From assembly GCF_056712565.1 (NCBI RefSeq), contig NZ_CM160072.1: 64,000 nucleotides of DNA. One strand, 5' to 3'. Made by a program: the position numbers. Of the stretch, positions 19,101 through 22,100 are shown piece after piece. How positions within the stretch are numbered: position 1 is the first letter of the stretch; every line of letters begins with the position of its first letter.

Positions 19101-22100
19101 TGTGTTACCGCCATCAACCTTAAAATTTAGTGTCGATGGGCGTGATCCGACGTATTTCCTCTTTAAAGGCGATTTACATGCTGGTGAGATTGGCCCGGTT
19201 CGGGTAAATGGTCGCTGGGACGGTATTCGTCTGCGCGGTAACGCCTGGTGGCCTAAACAATCACTGACTGTATTCCAGCCGCTGGTGCCACCCGACTGGA
19301 AGATGAACTTACGCGATGGTGAACTGTATGCTCAGGTTGCATTTTCAGCTGCGCCTGAACAAGGATTCCGCGCGGGGGGGCACGGCGTATTGAAAGGCGG
19401 TAGTGCCTGGATGCCAGATAATCAGGTTAACGGTGTCGATTTTGTCCTGCCTTTCCGTTTTGCCGATGGAGCCTGGCATCTGGGGACTCGCGGTCCCGTT
19501 ACGTTGCGAATTGCCGAAGTGATTAATCTGGTGACAGCGAAAAATATTACGGCTGATTTGCAAGGTCGTTATCCGTGGACTGAAGAAGAACCATTGCTGT
19601 TGACTGATGTTAGCGTCGATGTGTTAGGCGGTAACGTGCTGATGAAACAATTACGTATGCCGCAACATGACCCGGCGCTGTTGCGGCTGAATAATCTTTC
19701 CTCCAGCGAACTGGTTAGCGCCGTCAATCCGAAACAATTCGCCATGTCCGGGGCATTTAGTGGTGCATTGCCGTTATGGCTAAACAACGAAAAATGGATA
19801 GTGAAAGACGGCTGGCTGGCAAATAGCGGGCCGATGACCTTGCGGCTGGATAAAGACACCGCAGATGCGGTGGTGAAAGACAATATGACCGCGGGTTCAG
19901 CAATTAACTGGTTGCGCTATATGGAAATTAGCCGTTCATCGACAAAAATTAATTTAGATAATCTCGGTTTATTAACCATGCAGGCCAATATTACAGGTAC
20001 CAGTCGCGTTGATGGTAAAAGCGGTACGGTAAATCTTAATTACCATCATGAAGAGAATATTTTTACGCTGTGGCGCAGTTTACGCTTTGGCGATAATCTC
20101 CAGGCATGGCTGGAGCAGAACGCGCGTCTGCCGGGAAATGACTGTCCGCAAGGAAAAGAGTGTGAGGATAAACAATGAAAATTTTACTGGCTGCGTTGAC
20201 GTCATCTTTTATGCTGGTTGGCTGTACGCCTCGCATTGAAGTCGCTGCACCTAAGGAACCGATCACTATCAATATGAACGTTAAAATTGAGCATGAGATC
20301 ATCATCAAGGCAGACAAAGATGTCGAAGAGCTGCTTGAGACCCGTAGCGATCTTTTTTGAGGTGATGATGAAAAGAACATTACTTCTTTGTGCATTTCTT
20401 GTTGGCTTGGTAAGCAGCAATGTAATGGCATTGACTCTGGATGAAGCCAGAACTCAGGGGCGGGTAGGCGAAACATTTTATGGTTATCTGGTTGCGCTGA
20501 AAACAGATGCTGAAACTGAGAAATTAGTAACCGACATCAATGCCGAACGTAAAGCGAGCTATCAACAACTGGCAAAGCAGAATAATGTGTCGGTGGATGA
20601 TATCGCGAAACTCGCCGGGCAAAAGCTTGTAGAACGGGCCAAACCCGGGGAATATGTACAAGGGATAAACGGTAAATGGGTGCGAAAATTTTAATAGCAA
20701 AACCGCAATATCGGGATAACGCTACAGGAGAAGACGATTAATCTATTTTCCGGAAACATTTTTCTCTTTTAATTATAAGGATGAGTTATGTTTCCGCTCT
20801 AATTTATTTATTCGAGTATTGATTTTATACCCTTTTTTCATTAAATAAATATCTATGTGACGCATTTGAATTTATAATTTATATAATATACATAATTTGT
20901 ATGTTTCGCGGGTTTATTTATTTCTCTGTATTATAAATCCAGATTGTCAGAGAATATGTTTGATTAGGTAACAATCTACTGGCAATATTGGACGTCCTCT
21001 ATGTTTTAAATAATCAATTGGTCGGGTCAGGGTATCCGACCTTCTTTATATTCGCCAGAAGGATTTATTATGCAAAGGAAAACTCTATTGTCGGCCTGTA
21101 TTGCATTAGCTCTGAGTGGTCAGGGTTGGGCGGCAGATATTACAGAAATAGAAACCACCACAGGTGAAAAGAAAAATACCAATGTGACTTGTCCAGCAGA
21201 TCCTGGAAAACTCAGTCCAGAAGAGCTTAAACGCTTACCCTCTGAATGCTCCTCTGTAGTCGAACAGAACCTGATGCCATGGCTTGTCACAGGTGCTGCT
21301 ACTGCGTTAATCACAACCTTAGCCATAGTGGAACTAAACGACGATGATGATCATCATCGCAATAATTCTCCACTTCCACCAACTCCACCTGATGATGATT
21401 CAGACGACACTCCAGTTCCTCCAACTCCTGGCGGAGATGAGATAATACCAGACGATGGTCCGGATGATACCCCGACGCCTCCCAAACCGATTGCGTTTAA
21501 TAATGACGTTATCCTCGATAAAACAGAAAAAACGTTAACTATTCGCGATTCAGTTTTCAGTTATACCGAGAATGCTGATGGGACTATTTCTCTGCAAGAT
21601 AGCAATGGGCGTAAGGCGACTATTAATCTTTGGCAGATTGATGAAACGAATAACACGGTTGCCCTTGAAGGGATGAGCGCAGATGGTGCAACGAAGTGGC
21701 AATATAATCACAACGGTGAGCTCGTTATTACGGGCGACAATACCACAGTAAACAACACTGGAAAAACCATCGTCGACGGCAAAGGCGCCACCGGAACTGA
21801 AATCGCGGGTAACAACGCGGTGGTGAATCAGGACGGCGAGCTGGATGTGAGCGGCGGCGGTCACGGGATTGATATCACCGGCGACAGCGCAACTGTGGAC
21901 AACAAAGGCGGCATGACTGTCACCGATCCGGATTCCATCGGTATTCAGATCGACGGCGACAAGGCGGTTGTCAATAAGGACGGTGACAGTGCCATCAGCA
22001 ACGGTGGCACCGGCACGCAGGTTAACGGCGACGAAGCCACCGTGAACAATAACGGCAGCACCACCGTTGACGGCAAGGATTCCACGGGCACCGAGATAAA

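Follow-up and report, generated by a model that had tools for sequence, protein, structure and literature searches.

TynA converts phenylethylamine and tyramine to the corresponding aldehydes, FeaB converts the aldehyde to phenylacetate, and the Paa enzymes carry phenylacetyl-CoA on to acetyl-CoA and succinyl-CoA, with FeaR, PaaX, and PaaY serving as regulators. In Escherichia coli K-12 the genes for these proteins form one cluster between ydbL and ydbA. Here, the same locus is described in a 64-kb stretch of contig NZ_CM160072.1 (NCBI RefSeq assembly GCF_056712565.1; hereafter the window), where ydbL and ydbA are separated by only 375 bp. This short spacer is very probably the scar of a single old chromosomal deletion of a native fea/tyn/paa cluster. 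It is read in this way, and not as an empty site, because of gene order in outgroups, remnants of the cluster in related phylogroup B2 strains, the host-like base composition of the missing segment, and one identical junction in all carriers examined.

The absence of these genes from certain lineages has a published history. In one study, tynA was detected by polymerase chain reaction in 7% of uropathogenic E. coli (UPEC) isolates, with 93% negative, and no tested isolate from neonatal meningitis or of O157:H7 was positive; strain IHE3034 is named as tynA-negative, and the block missing from CFT073 is described as "a 33-kb area" (Elovaara et al., 2015; PMC4640556). Two other studies describe a lack of paa from phylogroups B2 and E (Leimbach et al., 2017; PMC5422975) and heterogeneity of the region from ydbH-ynbE-ydbL to ynbC-ynbD-azoR, where deletions have arisen independently several times (Goldstone et al., 2016; PMC4951805). 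Phenylacetate degradation has also been positively associated with phylogroup B1 (Touchon et al.; PMC7314097). The absence of the cluster from extraintestinal pathogenic E. coli (ExPEC)/B2 strains and from O157 is already published, and the lineage difference is real but known.

Locus Layout and Comparison With K-12

The features that make up the locus are as follows, with coordinates of the window and, where given, of the K-12 locus (L001).

16342-17331, minus strand: ldhA, upstream of ydbH
17539-20178, plus strand: ydbH, which opens the ydbH-ynbE-ydbL unit, the conserved left flank (NCBIfam NF007971, 1400 bits against a cut-off of 824; 99% identity to K-12 YdbH)
20175-20360, plus strand: ynbE, a lipoprotein gene (100% identity to K-12 YnbE; annotated by RefSeq in identical genomes)
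20368-20694, plus strand: ydbL, last gene of the left flank, 108 amino acids (97% identity to K-12 YdbL by tblastn)
20695-20758: left part of the spacer, 64 bp, homologous to the K-12 DNA directly 3' of ydbL (L001 6208-6271)
20758-20759: putative deletion junction, K-12 L001 6272-25076 being absent (base-by-base comparison)
20759-21069, plus strand: right part of the spacer, 311 bp, 28% G+C, homologous to the K-12 paaY-ydbA spacer and presumed ydbA regulatory region
21070-29384, plus strand: ydbA, encoding a BigA-like autotransporter adhesin, right flank (NCBIfam auto_BigA, 681 and 899 bits, in two open reading frames)
29604-30464, plus strand: pdxI (ydbC), next conserved right-hand gene (99% identity to K-12 PdxI; NF007695, 558 bits)

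The source strain is an E. coli of uropathogenic B2 type. Positions 20200-21600 are 100% identical in UTI89, S88, IHE3034, APEC O18, NU14, and the type strain ATCC 11775, and in genomes identical over this interval RefSeq calls ynbE, ydbL, and the autotransporter. The YdbL protein is WP_001296049.1 in UTI89 and is also encoded by strains of the sequence type 131 (ST131) and E2348/69 types. With ydbL ending at 20694 and the ydbA ATG at 21070, the spacer occupies 20695-21069, and its G+C content is 30.4% against 49% for the whole window, with a minimum of 25-27% in mid-spacer in a 200-bp profile.

In K-12 MG1655 (NC_000913.3), by comparison, ydbL and ydbA lie 19,185 bp apart, and the interval holds feaR, feaB, tynA, paaZ, paaABCDEFGHIJK, paaX, paaY, and ynbG. 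The segment missing from the window measures 18,805 bp (L001 6272-25076; genome 1446271-1465075). A sequence-only reading of the window had described ydbL and ydbA as adjacent across 375 bp of AT-rich DNA and had placed some 18-20 kb of fea/tyn/paa genes here in K-12. The gene calls and the low G+C content bear out the former, and the size and gene list of the missing segment agree with the latter; K-12 does not have the ydbL-ydbA adjacency, and the map assumed for it was right. A tblastn search of the whole 64-kb window with all K-12 cluster proteins found no homologue of feaR, of tynA, or of the paa genes, and its sole match was an aldehyde dehydrogenase paralogue at 41390-42808 (33% identity to feaB and 26% to PaaZ). 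The small K-12 open reading frame (ORF) ynbG, 21 codons in the paaY-ydbA spacer (L001 25166-25231), has no intact counterpart at window 20828-20915.

The missing segment resembles the host chromosome in composition, with 52% G+C against 50% in the surrounding 38 kb. The K-12 annotation shows no integrase, insertion sequence (IS), or tRNA at the ends of the cluster, and its 18.8 kb consist of catabolic and regulatory genes only. The absence of repeats, IS elements, integrases, and tRNAs was judged throughout from sequence comparison and annotation, without a dedicated repeat or tRNA finder.

The Junction

Both flanks of the window are collinear with the K-12 flanks and meet at a single point. 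Window 14488-20758 matches L001 1-6271 at 97.8% identity, and window 20758-22104 matches L001 25076-26424 at 86.7%, with blastn and megablast in agreement; within the latter, the right part of the spacer is approximately 88% identical to L001 25077-25392, with numerous indels. The breakpoint falls between window positions 20758 and 20759, corresponding to K-12 genome positions 1446270/1446271 on the left and 1465075/1465076 on the right, and the cut lies 64 bp past the ydbL stop and 14 bp past the paaY stop. On base-by-base inspection, the sequence reads ...CCGGAAACA up to the breakpoint and TTTTTCTCTTTTAATT... beyond it, and the bases common to both ends amount to a single A (1 bp). The divergent carriers LTC101, 09-02E, and Rb-3 have the same junction and read ATTTTG at its right side as K-12 does, which fixes the right end and leaves only one shared A. 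Around the junction, sequence divergence among the carriers examined reaches 4% over 400 bp, yet all have the identical junction, which points to a single event.

Short direct repeats, which the sequence-only reading had suggested looking for, do not flank the junction, the shared A being all that the ends have in common. The 6-mers GAAACA and TATTTT occur near both ends; a 6-mer is also shared by 50% of random pairs of 60-bp windows. A near-repeat formed by CCGGAAACA and CCGAAACA, the latter within the last paaY codons, was considered and set aside, as its use would require the loss of an additional 18 bp. An IS-mediated deletion was likewise rejected: the spacer contains no IS sequence, since all of its 375 bp align to K-12 intergenic DNA. 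Nor does the locus qualify as the insertion or excision site of a mobile genomic island, there being no integrase, tRNA, flanking direct repeat, or atypical G+C content.

Taken together, these observations are best explained by a deletion that removed 18,805 bp comprising feaR, feaB, tynA, paaZ, paaABCDEFGHIJK, and paaXY. The joining would have been illegitimate and essentially blunt, with 1 bp shared, and would not have involved excision of a mobile element. Such an event would have occurred once, in an ancestor within phylogroup B2, and its product is now present in about 9% of complete E. coli genomes, among them relatives of UTI89, S88, IHE3034, and ATCC 11775. The AT-rich DNA upstream of ydbA would have been spared, so that ydbA presumably keeps its own regulatory region, while now coming to lie directly 3' of the co-oriented ydbH-ynbE-ydbL unit.

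The Cluster Site in Other Lineages

A YdbL scan with one genome per species gave 59 loci, in which the order of cluster genes was then followed by tblastn. The arrangement ydbL-feaR-feaB-tynA-paaZ-paaA, in K-12 order and orientation, was found in Leclercia (L051, L055, L061), Silvania (L048, L049), Yokenella (L042), and a metagenome-assembled genome labelled Klebsiella (L039). In three Citrobacter species (L011, L012, L014), only feaR-feaB-tynA follow ydbL. The cluster also follows ydbL in a species-level Escherichia lineage with a divergent ydbL allele (L005). Because the same order recurs beside ydbL in other genera and in this lineage, the cluster is, as far as gene order can tell, an old resident of the ydbL-adjacent site.

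Closer to the window, related B2 strains carry fragments of the cluster at this site. In ST131-type strains (L063, L070), a 107-bp spacer leads into a fusion of 252 bp of feaR with the terminal 329 bp of paaY, after which comes the ydbA upstream region. This remnant amounts to 699 bp (L063 3001-3699), and the window corresponds to the ST131 locus minus exactly that remnant. Strains of the type of E2348/69 and 2009C-3133 carry a fusion of 207 bp of feaR with the last 153 bp of paaX together with paaY, and a second deletion removes ydbA; 2009C-3133 is 100% identical to the window over 199 bp ending at breakpoint 20758, beyond which it continues into the feaR fragment. The feaR, paaX, and paaY remnants diverge by approximately 3-10% from K-12 (adjacent core genes by approximately 3%) and are therefore not recent K-12-like imports.

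A different deletion, which takes out ydbA, brings the paaY stop directly up against the region upstream of pdxI (L062 4040-4053, L064, L069). It is widespread in paa-bearing genomes, including many of phylogroup B1 such as O104:H4, and is also found within the E2348/69-type scar.

Other Escherichia lineages are free of the cluster in different ways. In O157:H7 and Escherichia sp. E1V33, ydbL lies beside ydbA across a 413-bp spacer, with a divergent ydbL allele and a divergent ydbA. E. whittamii has ydbL, the same spacer, the start of ydbA, and then pdxI, and in E. albertii ydbL adjoins pdxI directly. To look for a common empty site, the spacer of O157:H7, E1V33, and E. whittamii was aligned with that of the window; only the first ~80 bp of ydbA align. 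Because its spacer cannot be aligned with that of the window, the O157:H7-type arrangement is, on this comparison, a second, unrelated ydbL-ydbA adjacency that speaks neither for nor against a shared empty ancestor.

The O157:H7 haplotype spanning ynbE, ydbL, the spacer, and ydbA (L065 7559-8400) is 98.7% identical to E1V33 (L007) and 77% identical to other E. coli, which suggests either an ancient polymorphism here or movement of the haplotype from one lineage to another. In Escherichia sp. MOD1-EC7003 (L003 5410-7390), homology to E. coli ends 42 bp past ydbL, and the next ~2 kb, up to the contig end, match neither the cluster nor ydbA nor pdxI.

Distribution Among Complete Genomes

The states of the locus were counted across a set of 5426 complete E. 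coli genomes.

Presence of 80% or more of the 18.8-kb segment: 3097 genomes
No megablast match anywhere in the segment: 1211 genomes
Window-type junction (401-bp junction query): 473 genomes
ST131-type scar: 564 genomes, 563 of them at 99% identity or more
E2348/69-type scar, in several backgrounds: 259 genomes
O157:H7-type adjacency: 374 genomes

A first search had returned 1034 carriers of the window-type junction; this figure was inflated by matches joined across the 699-bp ST131 remnant and was replaced by the count of 473 obtained with the 401-bp query. Partial states also occur. In E. coli B, 4.8 kb at the start of the segment remain (feaR, feaB, and tynA minus its 5' end), and in a further state 64% of the segment is present, with an internal part of the cluster missing. 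Since window-, ST131-, E2348/69-, and O157-type arrangements stand beside these partial ones, the locus is, by comparison of genomes, a hot spot for deletion, and no fewer than five outcomes can be told apart.

Alternative Explanations

Several observations weigh against a single deletion within B2, and they are considered here together with the alternatives that draw on them. The cluster is absent from O157:H7, Escherichia sp. E1V33, E. whittamii, and E. albertii, making the cluster-free state old in the genus, and B2 branches early in E. coli phylogenies. Both points count for an ancestral empty site, in which the ydbL-ydbA adjacency would be original and the cluster inserted in an ancestor of the other phylogroups. 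The O157-type spacer, being unalignable, neither supports nor excludes a common empty ancestor. Among the sampled matches, in a search that was not exhaustive, no B2 genome with an intact cluster was seen, and the B2 state before the deletion is therefore reconstructed from fragments. Nevertheless, an ancestral empty site appears quite improbable, given that no fewer than five other genera, and the Escherichia lineage L005, have the cluster behind ydbL, that B2 strains with the same YdbL hold diverged fragments of feaR, paaX, and paaY, and that the signatures of insertion (target duplication, integrase, tRNA, atypical G+C content) are missing; the unalignable O157-type spacer also counts against it. 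The sequence-only reading had offered both an empty site and a deletion scar, and of these the scar is retained, on the strength of the cluster beside ydbL in other genera and of the B2 fragments, and the empty site is not.

A further difficulty for a single deletion is that divergence from K-12 rises from approximately 2% on the left of the junction to approximately 13% on the right, which could mark a recombination boundary. This sharp shift (97.8% against 86.7% identity), along with the long-range allele sharing seen between O157:H7 and E1V33 (98.7%, against 77% to other E. coli), would fit a deletion that arose elsewhere, with the empty segment gained by a B2 ancestor through homologous recombination. 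Such an import is improbable: the left flank is B2-native up to the breakpoint, with 98-100% identity to scar-bearing B2 strains, the right flank is about equally divergent in every comparison made (ST131 is 82% identical to the window and 78% to K-12), and no donor haplotype was found. Since this high divergence of ydbA and the DNA upstream of it recurs in all lineages compared, the jump is attributed, from these comparisons, to hypervariability of this surface-protein gene and not to an import boundary. Loss in two steps is less probable still. It would require an internal deletion leaving an ST131-like feaR/paaY remnant and a second deletion of approximately 700 bp removing it, and it draws on the exact correspondence between the window and the ST131 locus minus 699 bp and on the deletion-prone nature of a locus with at least five deletion states. 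The sequences formally fit one step or two. One event is, however, the more parsimonious. Beyond the remnant, on its right, the ST131 spacer and that of the window share only 82% identity, too little for the window to derive recently from the ST131 allele. As to how the ends were joined, a microhomology of 1 bp is uninformative about the enzymology, which likewise tempers the account of a single deletion.

The ydbA Upstream Region and Neighboring Genes

The sequence-only reading had also taken the spacer for the ydbA promoter region. This role is plausible from the alignment, because the K-12 paaY-ydbA spacer is retained except for its first 14 bp, and ydbA probably keeps its own control region. 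A simple consensus scan of 20600-21150 revealed no sigma-70 site on the plus strand, and the spacer gave no Rfam match at E<=1. One terminator-like match was found:

21020-21041, plus strand: 8-bp hairpin and T-rich tail, 28 nt before the ydbA ATG

Its arms are GGTCGGGT and ATCCGACC, and G-U-compatible changes preserve the hairpin in the alleles of K-12 and ST131, where it is also predicted. It was rejected as a significant structure, with z-scores of -0.8 to +0.3 in the three alleles that do not distinguish it from shuffled sequences. The motif CCTTCT just 3' of the hairpin is complementary to the AGAAGG ribosome-binding site.

In the window, ydbA is broken by a 1-bp deletion near 25524 into ORFs at 21070-25545 and 25560-29384. 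The gene is intact in UTI89 (8316 bp), where the only other differences from the window are two single-nucleotide polymorphisms (22391 and 28769). The 1-bp deletion is absent from all 194 complete genomes matching that stretch and is thus either a frameshift private to this strain or an error in sequencing. Repeats make up the passenger domain, with internal self-matches of ydbA at 88-94% identity, and 88-codon minus-strand ORFs recur within 21550-25004 (starts at 21945, 22386, 23121, 23562, 24003, and 24738), offset by multiples of 147 bp, mostly 441 bp. These passenger-domain repeats probably contribute to the strong divergence of ydbA between lineages. In many RefSeq records, the 2771-amino-acid autotransporter is labelled "EntS/YbdA MFS transporter" (UTI89 L002 12871-21186), apparently because ydbA was confused with ybdA.

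Further to the right, ydbD, which occupies 2.3 kb of the pdxI-ynbA interval in K-12, is absent at window 30557-30664, L001 35174-37523 having no counterpart. As in UTI89, pdxI nearly abuts ynbA, which represents a second lineage-specific deletion nearby.

Relation to Known Systems

From the known functions of the missing genes, the strain would be expected to be unable to oxidize 2-phenylethylamine or tyramine through TynA and FeaB and to degrade phenylacetate through the Paa pathway, and the deletion would explain this expected inability in the strain and its relatives. Comparison of the end points, which are different in each case, suggests that the cluster has been lost in at least four to five independent events in E. 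coli. Four of these losses fall in major pathogenic lineages (ST95/UTI89-type B2, ST131, E2348/69-type enteropathogenic E. coli, and O157:H7), and partial deletions of the cluster occur in E. coli B and in some mastitis strains. Such repeated, independent removal makes the cluster a reasonable, though not new, candidate for studies of adaptive gene loss in extraintestinal and enterohaemorrhagic lineages. That the loss was positively selected in host-associated pathogens, with the cluster acting as an anti-virulence or antagonistic-pleiotropy locus, is a tentative and unlikely proposal, the alternative being neutral decay. A possible route for selected loss would be the production of H2O2 and reactive aldehydes from host amines by TynA.

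In this respect, the locus invites comparison with the "black holes" of pathogenic E. coli and Shigella, of which the deletion of cadA in Shigella is an example. Here, too, a native chromosomal cluster has been deleted repeatedly in pathogenic lineages with varying end points. Unlike in the "black holes," however, a gain in fitness or virulence from the loss of fea/tyn/paa is only hypothetical, and relaxed selection fits equally well. The locus also resembles a mobile genomic island in that some strains carry a large gene block that others lack cleanly. It differs from such an island in that the block is syntenic across genera and lacks an integrase, a tRNA, a flanking repeat, and atypical composition. 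The deletion scar reveals no new kind of element or mechanism.

The closest described cases are the published absences themselves, which concern the same locus and lineages and which, in the parts of those papers drawn on here, are given as presence or absence or as approximate extents (PMC4640556; PMC5422975; PMC4951805). What is added to that work is incremental: a base-exact breakpoint, assigned to a single event and separated from the ST131, E2348/69-type, and O157:H7 states. In practical terms, CCGGAAACA joined to TTTT provides a base-exact marker that sets one B2 sublineage apart from ST131 and E2348/69-type strains.

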